A DNA stretch of 64,000 bases, taken from the NCBI GenBank assembly GCA_964511175.1, contig CAZEEI010000001.1, positions 23,216 through 87,215 on the forward strand. The letters run 5' to 3'. This stretch comes from an uncultured Pseudomonadales bacterium (GTDB taxonomy: Bacteria; Patescibacteriota; Microgenomatia; UBA1400; UBA1396). Below are positions 3,964 through 18,576 of this stretch, one piece after another. Below the pieces are notes generated by a model that did not search any database, was not told where the DNA came from, and was given only the letters and a program-made list of their open reading frames with translations. Both the position numbers and the translations under genes were made by a program. Position 1 is the first letter of the stretch. Each line of letters opens with the position of its first letter.

Positions 3964-6546
3964 ATGGCTTACGACCACCGGTCTCTTGAGAAAAAGTATA
4001 CTCAGCAGTGGCGAGAGCAACGTCTCTATGAGCCCGATTTGCGCGCCGCCGCACGGCCTTATTACAACCTCATGATGTTTCCTTATCCCTCGGCAGAAGG
4101 GCTGCACGTGGGTAACATGTATGCCTTTACCGGTGCTGACGTTCACGGCCGGTTTTACCGAATGTTGGGATTTGACGTTTTTGAACCGATTGGTTTGGAT
4201 GGTTTTGGTATTCACTCGGAGAATTACGCCATCAAAGTAGGTCGCCATCCGGCGCAGCAGGCTAAAGTCTCTGAGGATAATTTTTACCGTCAGCTGGGAG
4301 CGATCGGCAATGGATTCGCCTGGGAAGAACGCCTGGAAACTTACGATCCGGAGTATTATCGCTGGACACAGTGGCTGATGATGCAAATGTTCAAGCATGG
4401 TCTGGCTTACAAAGCCGAAGCGGCAGTGAACTGGTGTCCTTTTGACAAAACGGTTTTGGCCGACGAGCAAGTCGAGGACGGGGTGTGCGAGCGCTGTAAA
4501 AATCCGGTCGAGCGGCGCACGATGAGCTCCTGGTTTTTGCGGATTACCGATTATGCGGACCGCTTGTTGGATAATATCGACAATTACGCCTGGCAGGATG
4601 CTGAGGGGAAAACGCACCGCGGTTTGCAGTGGCCTGGTAAAGTGACCACTGCCCAGCGGAACTGGATTGGGCGCACGACTGGCTTGGATATTGATTTTGC
4701 TCTGGAAAATAGCCCGGAAAAAATTACCGTTTGGACTAAGTTTTGGGAAACGATTTTTGGTGTTACATACTTGGTTTTGGCTCCCGAGCATCCATTGGCG
4801 AGCCGCATTGCCAGCCAGTCACAAAAAACGGCTGTGGCGGAGTACATCCACTCGGCTTTGAATCGATCAGAGCAGGACCGTCAGGCTGGCCAGGAAAAAA
4901 GTGGCGTATTTACCGGTGCTTACGCCGTTAATCCGGTTAACGGTGAACGAGTACCTATCTGGATTGCCGACTATGTTTTAACGACTGTTGGAACTGGGGC
5001 GGTAATGGGTGTGCCGGCGCATGATGAGCGAGACTTTGCTTTTGCTCAGAAATTTGGTTTACCGATTATTCAGGTAGTAGCTTACGCTGACCCCCAAATC
5101 AATCAGGCAGTGGCTCGAGGAGAGCGTTCGTATGAGGGGGAAGGAGTACTTCTGCACTCTGGCCAGTTCGACGGACAAGCGGCTTGGGGAGAGGGAAAAA
5201 CGGCCATTCAAAATTGGCTGGTTAACCAAAATTGGGCGCGCGAACGAGTTAATTATCACCTACGCGATTGGCTGATCTCCCGCCAGCGTTACTGGGGGCC
5301 GCCCATTCCGTTAATCTACTGTGAACATTGTGCTGAACAGGGCAAAGGTGAGCGCCCCGAATTGCCTGGCTGGTATGCGGTGCCGGAAGCGGATTTACCG
5401 GTTCTTTTGCCAGAAATTAGCGACTTCAAACCCAAGGGTGACGGTACTTCGCCGCTGGCCAACGCGCCAGACGACTGGAAGTCGGCCGCCTGTCCAGTTT
5501 GTGGCCAACCGGCCAAACGCGAGCTCGATGTTTCCGATACTTTTTTGGATTCGGCTTGGTATTTTCTGCGCTATCCCTGGTTGGGCGAAAACGATCACCC
5601 GTTCGGAACGGTTCTGCCGTTTGAAAACCTCAAGGAGAATCGACCTGGAACGATTCTTCCAGAGGTAGCTGAGCGCCAGAAGCGTTCTCAACTTAGCTGG
5701 TTCCCGGTTGACGCCTATATCGGCGGTGCCGAGCACGCAGTGTTGCACCTGCTTTATGCCCGCTTTGTCACCATGGCTCTGCACGATTGGGGTTATTTAC
5801 CCAGTGATGAACCTTTTCCATTTTTATTCGGCCACGGACTGATCATCAAGGACGGCGCCAAAATGAGTAAGTCGCGCGGCAATGTGGTTAATCCGGACGA
5901 GTATATCGCCAAGTACGGCGCTGACGCTCTGCGTGCCTATCTGATGTTTTTGGGACCCTATGACCAGGGCGGCGACTTTCGCGACACCGGTATGAGTGGC
6001 ATGTACAAGTGGCTGACGCGGATTTGGGATCAATTCAGCCAAATTTCGGGCGAGGCGACTGATCCAGATCTCAAGCGAAAACTCCACCAAGTAATTGCAG
6101 CTAATACCGCTGATCTCTACCAGTTTAAATACAATACCTGTTTAGCTCGGCTTATGGAGGTGGTTAACCTCTGGCGTGAAGGGGAGACGATGGGGCGGCC
6201 GGAAGCGATTATTTTCCTCCAGCTGTTGGCACCGTTTGCGCCGTTTCTAACCGAGGCGCTTTACCAGCAAATTCAGGATAAAAACGGAACGAGTGTGTTC
6301 CATTCGATTCATAGTTCAATTTGGCCGCCAGCTAATTCGGCCCTACTCGAGGCGGAAACAATCCCGATCGCCATTCAGGTCAATGGCAAACTGCGGGGTG
6401 TGATCGAAGTTAATCTGCAGCAGGCAACTGATCAGGAGTTTTTAACAACTAAGGCCAAGCAACACGAAACAGTACAGCGTTTTCTCACCGCCGAATCCAA
6501 AAAAGTTATTGTCGTTCCCGGTAAAATTATCAACTTTGTGATCTAA
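3964..6546 (+). CDS. leuS: Leucyl-tRNA synthetase
   Basis: MAYDHRSLEKKYTQQWREQRLYEPD... class I LeuRS N-terminus with an HVGN (HIGH-type) motif and a KMSKS motif (GAKMSKSRGN). Start chosen at ATG 3964 inside the longer track ORF 3691..6546. Confidence 0.9.
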   Translation: MAYDHRSLEKKYTQQWREQRLYEPDLRAAARPYYNLMMFPYPSAEGLHVGNMYAFTGADVHGRFYRMLGFDVFEPIGLDGFGIHSENYAIKVGRHPAQQAKVSEDNFYRQLGAIGNGFAWEERLETYDPEYYRWTQWLMMQMFKHGLAYKAEAAVNWCPFDKTVLADEQVEDGVCERCKNPVERRTMSSWFLRITDYADRLLDNIDNYAWQDAEGKTHRGLQWPGKVTTAQRNWIGRTTGLDIDFALENSPEKITVWTKFWETIFGVTYLVLAPEHPLASRIASQSQKTAVAEYIHSALNRSEQDRQAGQEKSGVFTGAYAVNPVNGERVPIWIADYVLTTVGTGAVMGVPAHDERDFAFAQKFGLPIIQVVAYADPQINQAVARGERSYEGEGVLLHSGQFDGQAAWGEGKTAIQNWLVNQNWARERVNYHLRDWLISRQRYWGPPIPLIYCEHCAEQGKGERPELPGWYAVPEADLPVLLPEISDFKPKGDGTSPLANAPDDWKSAACPVCGQPAKRELDVSDTFLDSAWYFLRYPWLGENDHPFGTVLPFENLKENRPGTILPEVAERQKRSQLSWFPVDAYIGGAEHAVLHLLYARFVTMALHDWGYLPSDEPFPFLFGHGLIIKDGAKMSKSRGNVVNPDEYIAKYGADALRAYLMFLGPYDQGGDFRDTGMSGMYKWLTRIWDQFSQISGEATDPDLKRKLHQVIAANTADLYQFKYNTCLARLMEVVNLWREGETMGRPEAIIFLQLLAPFAPFLTEALYQQIQDKNGTSVFHSIHSSIWPPANSALLEAETIPIAIQVNGKLRGVIEVNLQQATDQEFLTTKAKQHETVQRFLTAESKKVIVVPGKIINFVI

Positions 6547-13600: not shown

Positions 13601-13957
13601 ATGCCACCACGACTATACGAGGGTCCAAAAAAAGAGCCGATTCCGGAAAATAGCTGCTGGATGTGTTTAGGGCAGGTTAAAGTTTCGACTGATCTAAACA
13701 CTAATACTGCCTTGTTATTCAATAGCCTGGAAGCGGGGAAGAAATACTTAAATTACGGAGTTTTGGCGCACGAAAGTGTAGTTCCAGTGCCACAGTATGC
13801 GCGTATTTACCTGGCAACAACCAATGAAATAAGGGTATCAGCTTTTTCTGCCACCGCCGATCGCTGTCTAATCGAGATTACGACCGGAAATTACGCTGGT
13901 AAATTTGCCATTATTTCTGCCGATAACTTTGACAGTCAATTAACACCAGTAAAATAA
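13601..13957 (+). CDS. Hypothetical protein
   Basis: 118-aa ORF with no recognisable motif. Confidence 0.3.
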   Translation: MPPRLYEGPKKEPIPENSCWMCLGQVKVSTDLNTNTALLFNSLEAGKKYLNYGVLAHESVVPVPQYARIYLATTNEIRVSAFSATADRCLIEITTGNYAGKFAIISADNFDSQLTPVK

Positions 13958-13976
13958 TCCATAGGGCTAGCGAAGT

Positions 13977-14687
13977 TTAATCCCGCAGCTTTTCGTAGGG
14001 CCGGATTTGGTAATCATTTGGCCAGAAATAATAGAGCGTAGCATGTTCTTCGTCATTGATTTCGAAAGCCACTATAGTGCCATCGTCAAAGGTGATTAGT
14101 CCGTGATCATTATCGCCGCCTCTTCTGATTTCAATAATTCCGAGCGCATGGCCACCGATTATTAAGCAGGTTTTCGGCTTTAAGTCCTCTATTGCCATAA
14201 TGCTAGTGACAAATTTGTAACCCTCCGGTGCCGATCCTCGGCGGAACCACCCCACTTGTTGGTCAATCTGATTACCAAGACGAGATTGCCGAAGAGCCAT
14301 CCTCTTTCCCGGGGAATTAGCGTCAGCTAACCGCGCCTGCCAAATACGCAATTCATTGCCATAGGAGTACATCGGGTGAGAACCGGGGGGAACGAGTGCG
14401 ATCGACATCGCATCATGGCGTAACGCCTCTAATTTTAAAAGAACCATAAGCTCAAACATTTCTGAATCTTTCAAAATGGGTAAAATGATTTCTGGTAACA
14501 AAAACCTCGCGAAATAATCAACCCGCAAATTGTTCGAATCAACTGATTGTTCTCCTGCCCGCCGCAAGATACGGTCAATGAATTCAATTAGACCAGGGGT
14601 TTCTGCCTTTGGGTCAAATTCGACCAAAAGGCCACCTTGTTGCTTTTCTTTTACTGCGGGTTTATGAGTAGGCATAAAAACCTCCAA
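13977..14687 (-). CDS. Hypothetical protein
   Basis: 236-aa ORF with no recognisable motif. Lies next to the 3' side of tRNA-Pro. Confidence 0.4.
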   Translation of the reverse strand: MEVFMPTHKPAVKEKQQGGLLVEFDPKAETPGLIEFIDRILRRAGEQSVDSNNLRVDYFARFLLPEIILPILKDSEMFELMVLLKLEALRHDAMSIALVPPGSHPMYSYGNELRIWQARLADANSPGKRMALRQSRLGNQIDQQVGWFRRGSAPEGYKFVTSIMAIEDLKPKTCLIIGGHALGIIEIRRGGDNDHGLITFDDGTIVAFEINDEEHATLYYFWPNDYQIRPYEKLRD

Positions 14688-14711
14688 TTAACTTTGTGAC
14701 CATCATACACT

Positions 14712-14787
14712 TGGTCGGGATGACTGGACTCGAACCAGCGACCTCAGCGTCCCGAACGCTGCGCGCTACCATCTGCGCTACATCCCG
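14712..14787 (-). tRNA. tRNA-Pro (anticodon CGG), CCA encoded
   Basis: Reverse complement gives CGGGATG-TA-GCGC-AGATGGTA-GCGC-G-CAGCG-TTCGGGA-CGCTG-AGGTC-GCTGG-TTCGAGT-CCAGT-CATCCCG-A-CCA. This folds as a cloverleaf with U33, anticodon CGG and G37. Confidence 0.85.
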
Positions 14788-14829
14788 TATTCAGCCTCGA
14801 CATTATAACGCAGTTCTCCCTAAAATAAG

Positions 14830-15507
14830 ATGAGGAGGAGTGTGACATCAACTAAAACTAATTTTTTTATTGGTGAAGTAATCGGCATAGGGTGGCAGGC
14901 GTGGCGACGACAGCCCTTACAATTAAGCGGTATTGTGGCGGCGGCGCTGTTGATACCGTACTTACCGGCAACAATCGGTATGGCTTTGGGTGACGAAGCT
15001 GGCTGGTTAACGGTTTTTCTTTTGTTGGGGATGTGGGGATTGGCTTTCCTGATTAATTTAGGTCTCTTACGCGTGTCGCTGAAAGTGACTGATGGTCAGC
15101 CAGTACAGTGGTTGGATTTATTTGCCGAATGGCGTCTACTGCCGCGTTTAGGGTTGGCTACCGGATTATATTTATTAGTGGTGTTAGGTGGCTGTCTAAT
15201 GTTTATTATTCCCGGGATAGTTTGGGCGATTGGACTGCAGTATTATCCCTGGCTGATACTCGAGGGATATGGTCCGGTGGCCGCCCTACAAGAGAGTGCT
15301 CGCCTAACGGTGGGTCACAAGTGGGACTTACTAGCTTGGCACTGGGTGAGTCAACTAATTATTATTTTGGGCATTTTTAGTTTGGGTTTAGGCCTATTAG
15401 TGGCAATGCCAGTGGTTTTAGTGGCTAATACTGCATTGTATCGGTGTCTGCAGGCCATAAGAAAGGAAGTTTATGTCAGGAAAAAGAATGAGAAGAAATG
15501 TTCTTGA
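14830..15507 (+). CDS. Integral membrane protein (hypothetical)
   Basis: Four to five hydrophobic helices and a basic C-terminus. Confidence 0.45.
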   Translation: MRRSVTSTKTNFFIGEVIGIGWQAWRRQPLQLSGIVAAALLIPYLPATIGMALGDEAGWLTVFLLLGMWGLAFLINLGLLRVSLKVTDGQPVQWLDLFAEWRLLPRLGLATGLYLLVVLGGCLMFIIPGIVWAIGLQYYPWLILEGYGPVAALQESARLTVGHKWDLLAWHWVSQLIIILGIFSLGLGLLVAMPVVLVANTALYRCLQAIRKEVYVRKKNEKKCS

Positions 15508-15790
15508 GCGATACAGGTTTGATTCTAATCACCCTAAGACCCCGGCCGAAATTGCGGCCAGCTTAGCAAACTTATTGTCAGATTTTACGGAAAAGAGTTT
15601 TCGGCCAGGCGGACAAGTTATCGACCAGTGGCTGCAACCTTGGTTGGACAGTTTTCTTAATAGTAATGCCAACACACAGCTCGTCTTATTAAGAGAAGCT
15701 TTACAAGGGTGGGGTTTCACCATTAGTTGGGTTTTAGACAGTACCTCTCGCAAACTACTAAGTTTAACCTTTAAACAGCTATTGCGTTAA
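15473..15790 (+). CDS. Small hypothetical protein, paralog 1 of a tandem pair
   Basis: Shares the PKTPAEIAASLANLLSDF / PNTPAEIAASLVELLSGF motif and an identical RBS+start context (aggaagtNtATG) with the next gene. Confidence 0.4.
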   Translation: MSGKRMRRNVLERYRFDSNHPKTPAEIAASLANLLSDFTEKSFRPGGQVIDQWLQPWLDSFLNSNANTQLVLLREALQGWGFTISWVLDSTSRKLLSLTFKQLLR

Positions 15791-15856
15791 GTTAAGAGGC
15801 AAATAACTAGACAAATCCTGACTCAACTGAGACAATCCGGTTCAGGAAGGAAGTCT

Positions 15857-16201
15857 ATGCCAGGAAGAATTGGTTTCGAAAAGTTTGAATTTGATCCCGA
15901 CCGACCGAATACTCCGGCCGAAATCGCGGCCAGTTTGGTGGAATTATTATCCGGTTTTAGCGGCAGGACTTTCCCGCCAGATAGCCCGGTTATCAATCAG
16001 TTACAACGCTGGTTGGATAGTTTTAGTGATGGCGCTACTGGTTTTGCACAACTTCAGCAAGTGAGAGCTGCTTTAGGAGAACAAGGTGTTTTGGTTCATT
16101 GGAACTTATATGGTACACCGGATAAATTACGCCTATATAGTATGGAGATTAACCAATTACCGCGTCTGAGGGAAGCTAATGGGACGGCGTTGTGCCGCTA
16201 A
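15857..16201 (+). CDS. Small hypothetical protein, paralog 2 of a tandem pair
   Basis: See paralog 1. 114 aa. Confidence 0.45.
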   Translation: MPGRIGFEKFEFDPDRPNTPAEIAASLVELLSGFSGRTFPPDSPVINQLQRWLDSFSDGATGFAQLQQVRAALGEQGVLVHWNLYGTPDKLRLYSMEINQLPRLREANGTALCR

Positions 16202-16211
16202 TTTGGCGTAT

Positions 16212-16943
16212 ATGTCTCAGAATAAGAGTATAAAAAAACTGTTATTGATTTTGCTGGTAGCGGCAGGTTTGGGGACGATAGTTTGGTGGAAACAAAACAG
16301 TAAAATACCCCCACAACATTCCGTCACCGGAACAGAAACTCCTCAGCAAGAAGACATGGCGGCTATCAGATCCTTCATGGGTAATCCAAATCTGGAATTG
16401 ACGTTTATTAACACTGATTTGCCGCTGCCATATTTTAGAGTTGGTAAAGTTACCAAGATAGATAGTGGCGAAAATATGGAGGTTGTCGAGGCTTGGATTC
16501 GTAAGGTCAACATCTATGACCAAAAGGAATTAATTGACGGAGAATGTTCCGTCTACGAATTTAATACTGATGCCAGAAGTCACAATTTGACAGCCGTAAT
16601 CATCCGCGGTTTACGGCAAAGTGAAATTGAAGACTGGAAAAATTCGGGTACATTTTGCAACTTAAATTCGGGCAGCACTCAAAAGTTAACTAAAACTGAA
16701 GCGGAAACTATTGCTATGGTTTATCTTAAGCGTGCCTTACCTAACTTTGAACAGATTAAAGACCAGTTTGTTTATTCGATACAAAATAATGGTGAGTCAC
16801 ACGAATGGCTGTGGGAAGACAGGAATTACCAATTGTCGGAAGAATTAGATAGCCGACCATACCCCAATCCAGTCATTCGCATATCCGTTCATAGTAGTAG
16901 CGAGATCCAGTACTGGAATACTATATCGCTCTTTGAGAATTGA
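16212..16943 (+). CDS. Membrane-anchored hypothetical protein (N-terminal TM, extracytoplasmic domain)
   Basis: MSQNKSIKKLLLILLVAAGLGTIVWW is a signal anchor. Start chosen at ATG 16212 inside track ORF 16179..16943. Confidence 0.45.
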   Translation: MSQNKSIKKLLLILLVAAGLGTIVWWKQNSKIPPQHSVTGTETPQQEDMAAIRSFMGNPNLELTFINTDLPLPYFRVGKVTKIDSGENMEVVEAWIRKVNIYDQKELIDGECSVYEFNTDARSHNLTAVIIRGLRQSEIEDWKNSGTFCNLNSGSTQKLTKTEAETIAMVYLKRALPNFEQIKDQFVYSIQNNGESHEWLWEDRNYQLSEELDSRPYPNPVIRISVHSSSEIQYWNTISLFEN

Positions 16944-16949
16944 ACACTG

Positions 16950-17117
16950 ATGATTAACGTTATAAGCGATATGAAAAAGAAAATCTTTATTGCGGTATTA
17001 GCATTGCTTTTTGTTCTTGGATTAGCCTGGTTTTTTGCGATCGAAGACTGTGTGGTGAACAGGAGAGACTTCGGAATTCCTACCGATTGGGCGACAATTA
17101 AAGACTGTAGCTACTAA
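16950..17117 (+). CDS. Possible small secreted or membrane peptide (55 aa)
   Basis: MINVISDMKKKIFIAVLALLFVLGLAWFFAIEDC... has a hydrophobic N-terminus. It is below the track size cutoff and speculative. Confidence 0.2.
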   Translation: MINVISDMKKKIFIAVLALLFVLGLAWFFAIEDCVVNRRDFGIPTDWATIKDCSY

Positions 17118-17126
17118 GCGATTTTG

Positions 17127-17198
17127 TGCTCCTGCCGGGAATCGAACCTGGATCTGGCGCTTAGGAGGCACCCGTTCTATCCATTGAACTACAGGAGC
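17127..17198 (-). tRNA. tRNA-Arg (anticodon CCT)
   Basis: Reverse complement gives GCTCCTG-TA-GTTC-AATGGATA-GAAC-G-GGTGC-CTCCTAA-GCGCC-AGAT-CCAGG-TTCGATT-CCCGG-CAGGAGC-A. One A-C mismatch in the T-stem. CCA is not encoded. Confidence 0.7.
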
Positions 17199-17217
17199 GA
17201 TAAAGTAGTAGTTTGTA

Positions 17218-18576
17218 TCACTTTAGATCGATAGTATACAGGTTTTCCGGCGTTATTGCCTCTTGGTTAAAATTAGTCAACATCAGCAGACTCGAACCAT
17301 TGGGCCAGGGATAAACAAAATCATGGTTGAACGGACCAGAATAAACCCGCACGGGATTGCCGCCATCGTACTCCATGATGGTAATCGCATTTTGGTCATG
17401 GGTAATAATGTGGCTCGAGTCGGGAAACCACTGGTAACCATGGGTATAAAGCGGGCTGTGATAGCGCTGGAAATTAATAACCGAATTAAGCGGTTTAGCG
17501 GTTTGGAGACGCAGGAAGGCAGCAGGCGAGGCTTGCAATGAAAGCGGTTGCTTGCTGTCCAAATCAGTAGCCAAAAGCTGTTTAGTGGCGCCAGGAATAA
17601 ACGCGCCAAGATCGGTGCCGATCCGAAACTGACGGTCTTCGTCACGGTCATAAACATAAATGCCGCCCGCTGCCGTAGTTCTTTCCTGGGGCTGAGTGTT
17701 GGAGGCTGGTTTGGCGGGCAGAAGATTGTCCGGTACGGTAAAAATGCTGGTAGCGGTGTACATTAGGTGTTTCTCGTCCGGTGAAAAGTAGGTATTAACC
17801 GCGCTGGTGGTAGCTACTTGTTGCATAAAGTAGGGGAATTTGCTCAGGCGTTCCCGGTCGCGCAAATACATTTCTTCCTCCCACTGCGAGAAAATACTGC
17901 TTAACTGGTAGGAGACATCGGCCTGCTCATCTAGGTCGGTAAGGCGGCTAGGATCCAGTAAAACGCTTTTGTGCGGCGAGATCAGGAGCAGCTGGCCACT
18001 ATTGGGTGACCAGACTATTTGGGTGTCATCTAAAGGGAAGCTGGCCGAAGGTCGTGCAACTTGGCGTGGGCTACGTTGTAGGGCCAGAAGATTATCGGTT
18101 AATTCGAGTACATAAAAACCATTACGGATATCGGCGGAAGCGGAGGCGGTATAGTAGGCCAAATGCTGGCCGTCCGGAGAAGGGACAGGTTTGGCCGCGC
18201 CGGAAAAAGTGAGGGGAGTAAAGCTGGGAGCCGTGGGGAAGAGTAGAGCATTAGCCTGGGTGACCAGCTCTTTTTCAATGACGACGTCTTTTTTCCAGGG
18301 GAGATAGCCATCTTTACTGATTTCAATAGCGTACTGGCCGGGATCTAGGTAAAGGGTATCGTCGGTGGCAGAAGTGAAGCGGCCATTAACCAGCACTCGA
18401 GCGCCGGTAGGTGAAGAATTGGCGACCAGCAGGCCACGACCAGCCACAAGCACATTGCGGGAGGGTCGGTAGCCCTGGGCAAAACGGATCACAATGGCCG
18501 TACCGGTGATAATAATAGCCATTGCGCAAACAGTCCACCAAATGCGCGCGCGAGTATTGGTCATAACCGTATACAA
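17218..18576 (-). CDS. PEGA-domain protein with N-terminal TM anchor and a beta-propeller-like C-terminal region
   Basis: VLVNGRFTSATDDTLYLDPGQYAIEISKDGYLPWKKDVVI is a classic PEGA motif. The real start may be the MTNTRARIWW codon at 18564. Confidence 0.55.
   Translation of the reverse strand: MYTVMTNTRARIWWTVCAMAIIITGTAIVIRFAQGYRPSRNVLVAGRGLLVANSSPTGARVLVNGRFTSATDDTLYLDPGQYAIEISKDGYLPWKKDVVIEKELVTQANALLFPTAPSFTPLTFSGAAKPVPSPDGQHLAYYTASASADIRNGFYVLELTDNLLALQRSPRQVARPSASFPLDDTQIVWSPNSGQLLLISPHKSVLLDPSRLTDLDEQADVSYQLSSIFSQWEEEMYLRDRERLSKFPYFMQQVATTSAVNTYFSPDEKHLMYTATSIFTVPDNLLPAKPASNTQPQERTTAAGGIYVYDRDEDRQFRIGTDLGAFIPGATKQLLATDLDSKQPLSLQASPAAFLRLQTAKPLNSVINFQRYHSPLYTHGYQWFPDSSHIITHDQNAITIMEYDGGNPVRVYSGPFNHDFVYPWPNGSSLLMLTNFNQEAITPENLYTIDLK

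Follow-up and report, generated by a model that had tools for sequence, protein, structure and literature searches.

The locus described here raises the question of whether five small genes held between two transfer RNA (tRNA) genes form a single accessory insertion and, if not, which of them were added and by what route. It lies at positions 14712–17198 of a 64,000-nucleotide (nt) stretch of contig CAZEEI010000001.1 from an uncultured, small-genome bacterium of the Microgenomates type (hereafter, the window); identical contigs are present in samples SRR8925802 and SRR8925769. Minus-strand genes for tRNA-Pro (anticodon CGG, 14712–14787; Rfam RF00005, 66.9 bits) and tRNA-Arg (anticodon CCT, 17126–17198; 61.6 bits) flank five plus-strand open reading frames (ORFs), as a first-pass annotation made from the sequence letters had proposed and as ARAGORN, Rfam and the ORF list all confirm. 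Beyond these two tRNAs, the Rfam scan of the window found a third tRNA and no other RNA family. None of the five ORFs has a match at the curated threshold in Pfam, NCBIfam, PADLOC or PHROGs, in agreement with their initial description as genes of no recognisable function. In order, they encode a polytopic membrane protein of 225 amino acids (aa) (14830–15507); two soluble proteins of 105 and 114 aa, which we call parA (15473–15790) and parB (15857–16201); a bitopic membrane protein of 254 aa, p254 (16179–16943, with an alternative ATG start at 16212); and a possible small membrane or secreted peptide of 55 aa, p55 (16950–17117). Our best explanation, which we consider reasonably probable as a whole, is that a core unit of tRNA, membrane gene and tRNA gained about 1.65 kb of lineage-specific genes, by ordinary accessory-gene turnover and not as a new kind of system.

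Relatives of the locus were found through the PEGA-domain protein encoded on the minus strand beside tRNA-Arg (17218–18576). This gave seven loci from species-representative genomes (29–61% identity), all of which belong to metagenome-assembled genomes of the Patescibacteria/Microgenomates type. Four of them (L001, L002, L003 and L006) share a backbone with the window, which consists of an M16 peptidase, NDK, EamA, tRNA-Pro(cgg), a membrane protein, tRNA-Arg(cct), the PEGA protein and two further genes. A tRNA-Thr(ggt) gene is located approximately 10 kb away in L002, L003 and L006, as in the window. The gap between the tRNA-Pro and tRNA-Arg genes measures 779–1185 nt in the four relatives, compared with 2338 nt in the window. 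In all four, the gap holds a single gene, encoding a polytopic membrane protein of 208–226 aa that is 26–35% identical to the 225-aa protein and shares its IIPGI motif. Neither parA, parB, p254 nor p55 gave a tblastn match in the syntenic interval or elsewhere in the 20-kb loci of the seven relatives. Because the relatives keep the membrane gene and lack the other four, the membrane gene belongs to the core and only 15473–17117 is extra. Thus, tRNA-Pro(cgg), the DUF975-like membrane gene and tRNA-Arg(cct) constitute a conserved three-gene unit in the syntenic backbone of a Microgenomates-type lineage, with the two tRNAs as its conserved left and right boundaries. The four co-directional ORFs between the core membrane gene and the tRNA-Arg 3′ end are a lineage-specific addition. 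The first-pass annotation had called the interval a site of gene turnover, had suggested comparing it among related genomes, and had named conservation of the gene set as the result that would speak against turnover. The comparison shows a presence/absence polymorphism within conserved flanks, with four of the five genes absent from L001, L002, L003 and L006 despite the same tRNAs and neighbours. Its description of the whole five-gene block as an islet has to be narrowed, as the membrane gene is kept in place in four of four relatives.

The branching order of these genomes bears on whether the four genes were gained by the window lineage or lost by the others. Six backbone proteins were compared pairwise. 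By their identities, L001 and L003 group as sisters, L006 stands farthest apart for four of the six, and the distances separating the window from L001 and L002 are similar to the distance between those two. Because the window lineage does not branch as outgroup to the other four, loss would require at least three independent events and gain only one, which favours gain. Bacteria of the candidate phyla radiation (CPR) have reduced genomes that frequently lose genes. An ancestral five-gene arrangement, from which the relatives shed four genes by differential loss during streamlining, would fit this tendency; it would also fit the sparse sampling (only four comparable genomes, all distant, with 50–61% PEGA identity) and a block composition that is only weakly atypical. 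It accounts poorly for the additional losses it needs, for the occurrence of parA, parB and p55 nowhere else among 1.84 to 5.8 billion proteins, and for the fact that p254 homologs elsewhere never occupy this slot. We regard it as unlikely, and the four extra genes appear to have been gained in the window lineage.

The composition of the block was also considered. Its guanine-plus-cytosine (GC) content is 41.8%, compared with 47.7% for the window, which corresponds to the 4th percentile; the GC contents at third codon positions (GC3) of its genes have z-scores of −0.5 to −1.25. Homologs of p254 elsewhere have 36–45% GC in hosts of 36–42% GC, and the window copy, at 40.9%, lies within this range and below its 47.7% host. 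The low GC of p254 relative to its host is no more than suggestive, and composition as proof of transfer was rejected as too weak.

The 3′ end of tRNA-Arg is oriented toward the added block and is separated from the end of p55 by 8 nt. This placement would be expected of a decayed classical island, in which an integrase-bearing element entered the tRNA-Arg 3′ end and later lost both the integrase and its attachment (att) repeats. The frequent proximity of p254 homologs to recombinase genes, and the six homologs found just downstream of a tRNA-Gln gene, could be read in the same way. However, Pfam, NCBIfam and PHROGs scans of all ORFs in 13601–18576 found no integrase or recombinase, and the serine recombinase and cassette proteins that accompany p254 homologs (described below) had no tblastn match in the 64-kb window. 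When up to three mismatches were allowed, the terminal 20 nt at the 3′ end of each tRNA matched the window only at the tRNA itself, and the repeat search yielded only chance-level repeats of 11–13 nt. The att-like direct repeats of the tRNA ends for which a search had been proposed are therefore absent, and with no integrase either, the block is not a classical tRNA-integrated island. In addition, the recombinases linked to p254 are serine recombinases, which were not observed next to tRNAs in the cassette loci.

The surroundings of p254 homologs also speak against a tRNA-directed history. Contexts were compiled from eighty metagenome loci and from sixteen others retrieved by exact look-up. 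Five of the eighty metagenome loci have a tRNA no farther than 300 nt away, and four of these five represent the same tRNA-Gln arrangement; across all p254 loci, tRNA-Gln followed by p254 was found six times and tRNA-Gly once. This adjacency amounts to approximately 6–8% of loci, against approximately 5% expected from 0.08 tRNA per kb. Since the rate is about that of the background, p254 as a tRNA-associated mobile gene was rejected. A decayed tRNA-targeted island is an improbable source of the added block, and site-specific integration into a tRNA seems unlikely. In the lineage-specific gain that we favour, p254 probably arrived, by acquisition or relocation, through illegitimate recombination or as the remnant of a decayed recombinase element. 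Two further candidates were tried and rejected. A mobile unit with conserved ends around the window p254 was rejected as blastn similarity to the homolog loci is confined to the coding sequence (CDS; 16219–16944), and a phage or plasmid origin was rejected as there was no match in IMG/VR, INPHARED or PLSDB and none in PHROGs or PADLOC.

In other genomes, the p254 family is often linked to a serine recombinase and a YceG-like gene. A recurrent block of approximately 6 kb was found in Microgenomates contigs (L020, 619–6705; L041, 451–6711; L043, 686–6711; and also L052/L053, L027, L040 and L051). It begins with a large serine recombinase that carries Resolvase, Recombinase and Zn_ribbon_recom domains (Pfam), followed by several small genes on one strand, which include a DUF5659 protein, a helix-turn-helix (HTH) protein resembling HTH_36 and a small Resolvase-domain protein. 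A gene for a 221-aa membrane protein (N221) and then the p254 homolog lie divergently to them. N221, which resembles the N-terminal part of YceG/MltG proteins, is directly upstream of p254 in 19 loci, and either N221 or YceG is upstream in about 23. A full YceG gene (PF02618, E = 4e-68) replaces N221 in L058 and L085, and L089 and L095 have YceG genes nearby. In at least 12 loci, among them those of distant homologs with 27–35% identity, p254 has a serine recombinase no more than 4 kb away, and cassette genes are present in about half of the loci that reach 45% identity and have an upstream flank of 5 kb or more. Nucleotide similarity between the cassette loci extends from the recombinase as far as the p254 stop codon and no further, and because of this p254 can be taken as the terminal gene of a discrete block. 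The block is a candidate small integrative element.

The window p254 has a different setting. In a neighbour-joining tree, it groups with solitary copies (L017, L018, L019 and L028) in a clade that is nested among cassette-linked ones, and it would represent an orphaned copy, separated from its recombinase and its partner. Roughly 90 p254 loci were examined, none of which has the window arrangement or places the gene in this slot. Other solitary copies occur in accessory surroundings, for example with an IS3 transposase, with PIN/DUF4258 toxins, or with an S8 peptidase and an AAA ATPase. The closest homolog on a long contig (72% identity; L010/L019, 5747–9037, on a 335-kb Shapirobacteria contig) is beside a MacB-type ABC transporter, and on its other side is a convergent pair of Peptidase_S8 and AAA ATPase genes that looks like a defence-type or accessory module. 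In L012 (5001–5768 and 5737–6594), a p254 homolog just downstream of tRNA-Gln(ctg) has its C-terminus replaced by an IS3-family transposase (rve/HTH_Tnp_1) after "...IQYWN".

The p254 family has at least 69 homologs at 48–74% identity, the named ones of which come from Shapirobacteria, Beckwithbacteria, Gottesmanbacteria and the "Patescibacteria group". The family is uncharacterised, and this level of identity across candidate orders marks it as strongly conserved. Its alignment contains 19 invariant positions, including two Cys residues. The AlphaFold2 (AF2) model of p254 has a confidence score (pLDDT) of 87, and residues 51–254 mostly exceed 90. It consists of an N-terminal helix (residues 18–39) followed by two helix-plus-sheet modules. 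The helix is hydrophobic and preceded by basic residues, as in an N-terminal anchor with its domains outside the cytoplasm; the two invariant Cys residues of the ectodomain would fit such an extracytoplasmic location. The top Foldseek match of the model was 5boi (E = 4.8e-3), and by fold comparison the predicted modules correspond to tandem copies of the PepSY fold, in which one helix packs on a four-stranded antiparallel sheet. At the sequence level, p254 did not match the PepSY profile PF03413 at E values up to 0.1, and the family profile had no match among the sequences of the Protein Data Bank (PDB). The first-pass description of a PepSY-like membrane-anchored protein thus holds at the level of the fold, and the models show p254 as a tandem PepSY-like protein with a membrane anchor.

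Two precedents suggest what such a protein might do. TseB of B. subtilis and CopD of S. pneumoniae have a transmembrane (TM) anchor and two extracellular PepSY domains and act with penicillin-binding proteins (PBPs) (PMC10653890). The PepSY domains of YpeB embrace and inhibit SleB, a lytic transglycosylase (bioRxiv 10.64898/2026.06.01.729290). Because of these precedents, the most likely role of p254 by analogy would be to bind an extracytoplasmic cell-wall enzyme and to restrain or chaperone it. A more far-reaching reading combines this role with the neighbourhoods of the homologs. It proposes that p254 and its truncated YceG/MltG-like partner form a mobile envelope-remodelling module that is spread among Microgenomates by small serine-recombinase elements; that the PepSY-like ectoprotein checks a peptidoglycan-cleaving or peptidoglycan-binding partner, for example in episymbiont attachment, division or competitor exclusion; and that the window carries a domesticated, partner-less p254 in a core operon, together with two orphan regulators (parA and parB) that were born in the lineage and might be winged-helix proteins. 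Taken jointly, these three proposals are speculative and unlikely to hold in full. If a logic of the YpeB–SleB type did apply, the p254 family would be a mobile regulator of cell-wall enzymes in bacteria of almost unknown envelope biology.

The two genes upstream of p254 are paralogs, as had been noticed at first. Their products are 45% identical over 98 aa (BLASTP, E = 9e-22) and have the TPAEIAASL motif in common, and they differ in predicted isoelectric point (10.3 for parA and 5.3 for parB). Of the two tandem paralogs, parA is taken to be the older. The start contexts, AGAAAGGAAGTTTATGTCAGGAAAAA and AGGAAGGAAGTCTATGCCAGGAAGAA, include the Shine-Dalgarno sequence and the start codon and agree at 22 of 26 positions; they are similar, and not identical as first reported. 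The duplication had also been called recent. The DNA identity between the two genes is only about 60% (51% at third positions), and Nei–Gojobori estimates gave a pS of 0.70, which is saturated (dS about 2), a pN of 0.31 and a dN/dS of about 0.2. Because the synonymous sites are saturated, the duplication is old, and the substitution pattern indicates that both copies are under purifying selection. The conserved context of the ribosome-binding site (RBS) and start is better read as a constraint on translation initiation than as a sign of recency.

Database searches returned almost nothing for this pair. A word-indexed search of 5.8 billion proteins with parB retrieved only itself. When 1.84 billion cluster representatives were searched exhaustively with an HMMER profile, only parB, parA (P0071) and one weak match, P0072 (E = 1.9e-5), were retrieved. 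P0072 (347 aa) contains five tandem repeats of approximately 58 aa (LTPEQRQQV..KELREQGKTPQEIRAAIAEMLKGWGVEVP); it was rejected as a homolog, being a five-fold repeat protein that has only a TPxEIxAA-type helix motif in common with the pair. Comparison of the paralogs by hhalign with all neighbour families of the p254 homologs also yielded nothing. AF2 gave a fairly confident fold for the pair from only two sequences. The predicted topology of parB is alpha-beta-alpha-alpha-beta-beta, and the fold of both proteins is possibly winged-helix-like.

An obvious doubt is whether such genes are genes at all. If parA, parB and p55 were chance ORFs in junk or spacer DNA, with only the membrane gene and p254 being real, their lack of homologs outside this organism would be explained, as would the disagreement of two gene callers on p55 and on the start of parA. 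Chance ORFs would hardly retain 45% protein identity at saturated synonymous sites with a dN/dS of about 0.2, each preserve a Shine-Dalgarno/start context, or give a fairly confident fold as a pair. We consider this explanation very improbable. Because they are under purifying selection, parA and parB are probably real genes, and we regard them as taxonomically restricted orphan proteins and as candidates for lineage-specific gene birth. These counterarguments cover parA and parB; the coding status of p55 is putative.

The product of p55 would have a hydrophobic N-terminal segment and two Cys residues in a repeated I-E/K-D-C motif. Its database search returned only itself, and a weak match to DUF6520 (E = 0.0056) is below threshold. 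Of the possible 55-aa peptide listed in the first-pass annotation, the ORF exists, no homolog was found and the coding status is putative; we treat it as a doubtful membrane peptide. An 11-mer, ATTGAAGACTG, occurs four times with at most one mismatch within 480 nt in this part of the block (16626–16636, 16939–16949, 17040–17050 and 17097–17107). Two copies encode the repeated (A/T)-I-(E/K)-D-C motif of p55, and one encodes EIEDW in p254. The four copies may reflect chance or a trace of local duplication.

The five ORFs are tightly spaced. The first 35 nt of parA are also the last 35 nt of the membrane gene, parB and p254 overlap by 23 nt, and the two remaining gaps are 66 nt (between parA and parB) and 6 nt (between p254 and p55). 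Because all neighbours in 14830–17117 overlap or are separated by no more than 66 nt, the four added genes are probably co-transcribed with the membrane gene. This compactness might indicate that the five genes are one functional envelope operon, in which the DUF975-like protein, two cytoplasmic regulators, the PepSY ectoprotein and a small membrane peptide form a lineage-specific module instead of a random accretion. Co-directional genes with overlaps or small gaps, three of five products in the membrane or outside the cytoplasm, and paralogs under purifying selection are all compatible with such a module. Nevertheless, the genes co-occur nowhere else, which deprives it of comparative support, and p254 homologs function in entirely different neighbourhoods; we find it unlikely.

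The C-terminal tail of the window membrane protein (…AIRKEVYVRKKNEKKCS; 15452–15507) is 13–16 residues longer in the alignment than those of three of the four relatives. The DNA that encodes the AIRKEVYVRKKNEKKCS tail doubles as the RBS and start of parA and shares homology with the intergenic sequence that carries the parB RBS. Because the longer tail is encoded by this DNA, the junction of the added block may have reshaped the 3′ end of the core membrane gene.

Variation is not limited to the interval between the two tRNAs. In the window, the slot between EamA and tRNA-Pro contains a minus-strand ORF of 236 aa (13977–14687), which has no match in Pfam, NCBIfam, PADLOC or PHROGs and is absent from L001–L007, and a plus-strand ORF of 118 aa (13601–13957), which matches no family and is likewise missing from the syntenic relatives. 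At the corresponding place, L001 has an unrelated ORF of 310 aa, and L003 has one of 323 aa, also unrelated, between the PEGA gene and tRNA-Arg. Because these unrelated ORFs occupy neighbouring slots, the locus is a small hotspot of accessory-gene turnover with several variable slots. In L001, the tRNA-Arg(cct) gene (4072–4144) has the opposite orientation to its counterparts in L002, L003, L006 and the window, with the PEGA and membrane genes on either side unchanged in orientation; the inversion is local and confined to this one tRNA gene.

Several points weigh against the gain of the four genes as we have described it. Its timing and direction rest on parsimony over four genomes and on identity matrices, and core proteins of the closest relatives show only 50–61% identity. 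In composition the block deviates weakly, with z-scores for p254 of −2.0 (GC) and −0.9 (GC3). No mechanism of insertion is visible: there is neither a recombinase nor a repeat, and the DNA resembles that of other loci only within the CDS. The neighbour-joining tree that places p254 among solitary copies carries no support values, and many of its leaves have too little flank for their context to be scored. Promoter and terminator scans were at chance level, and co-transcription is read from gene spacing alone. The role proposed for p254 would follow from fold analogy and from neighbourhoods in other genomes, and no cell-wall enzyme gene adjoins p254 in the window. With these reservations, we prefer the gain of lineage-specific genes by a conserved unit. 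Nothing in the locus challenges current understanding; it is a clean, small example of gene-content turnover beside tRNAs in highly syntenic, streamlined CPR genomes, with no recognisable integration machinery.

Comparison with known systems places each component of the locus. The core membrane protein resembles the DUF975, YciC (UPF0259) and GPDPase_memb families. Its UPF0259 and GPDPase_memb matches in Pfam are below threshold, the closest NCBIfam model is YciC (E = 4.7e-4), and the four syntenic homologs likewise have DUF975, GPDPase_memb and UPF0259 matches below threshold. In the window protein and its four homologs, the partial matches consistently cover the C-terminal TM helices and the IIPGI motif, whereas the scores of 16–31 bits compare with curated thresholds of 30–35, so that the relationship is a family resemblance only.

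The predicted layout of p254, in which a short cytoplasmic tail and a single TM helix lead to two extracytoplasmic modules, each made of a helix and a beta-sheet, is that of TseB and CopD (PMC10653890). The protein has no sequence similarity to either and no PF03413 match. Its ectodomain is larger (approximately 200 aa, compared with approximately 125 aa) and contains an additional beta-hairpin and helix that separate the modules, as well as two invariant Cys residues; its family is confined to CPR bacteria of the Microgenomates type, often on serine-recombinase blocks. In comparison with YpeB–SleB, p254 has two modules instead of three, its partner would be YceG-like and not SleB, and no partner gene adjoins it in the window. 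The paralogs parA and parB agree with orphan genes that arise with tandem duplication in that they have no homologs outside the organism, lie side by side in the same orientation, and have the RBS/start context in common; they differ in that the duplication is ancient, with saturated synonymous sites. Unlike tRNA-associated genomic islets, the added block has no integrase and no att duplication and is very small (1.65 kb); the genes bracketed by the tRNAs include a core one, and the tRNA pair is part of a conserved unit, not a demonstrated integration target. It nonetheless shares with these islets its presence or absence beside tRNAs in a conserved backbone, its hypothetical genes and its slightly lower GC content.

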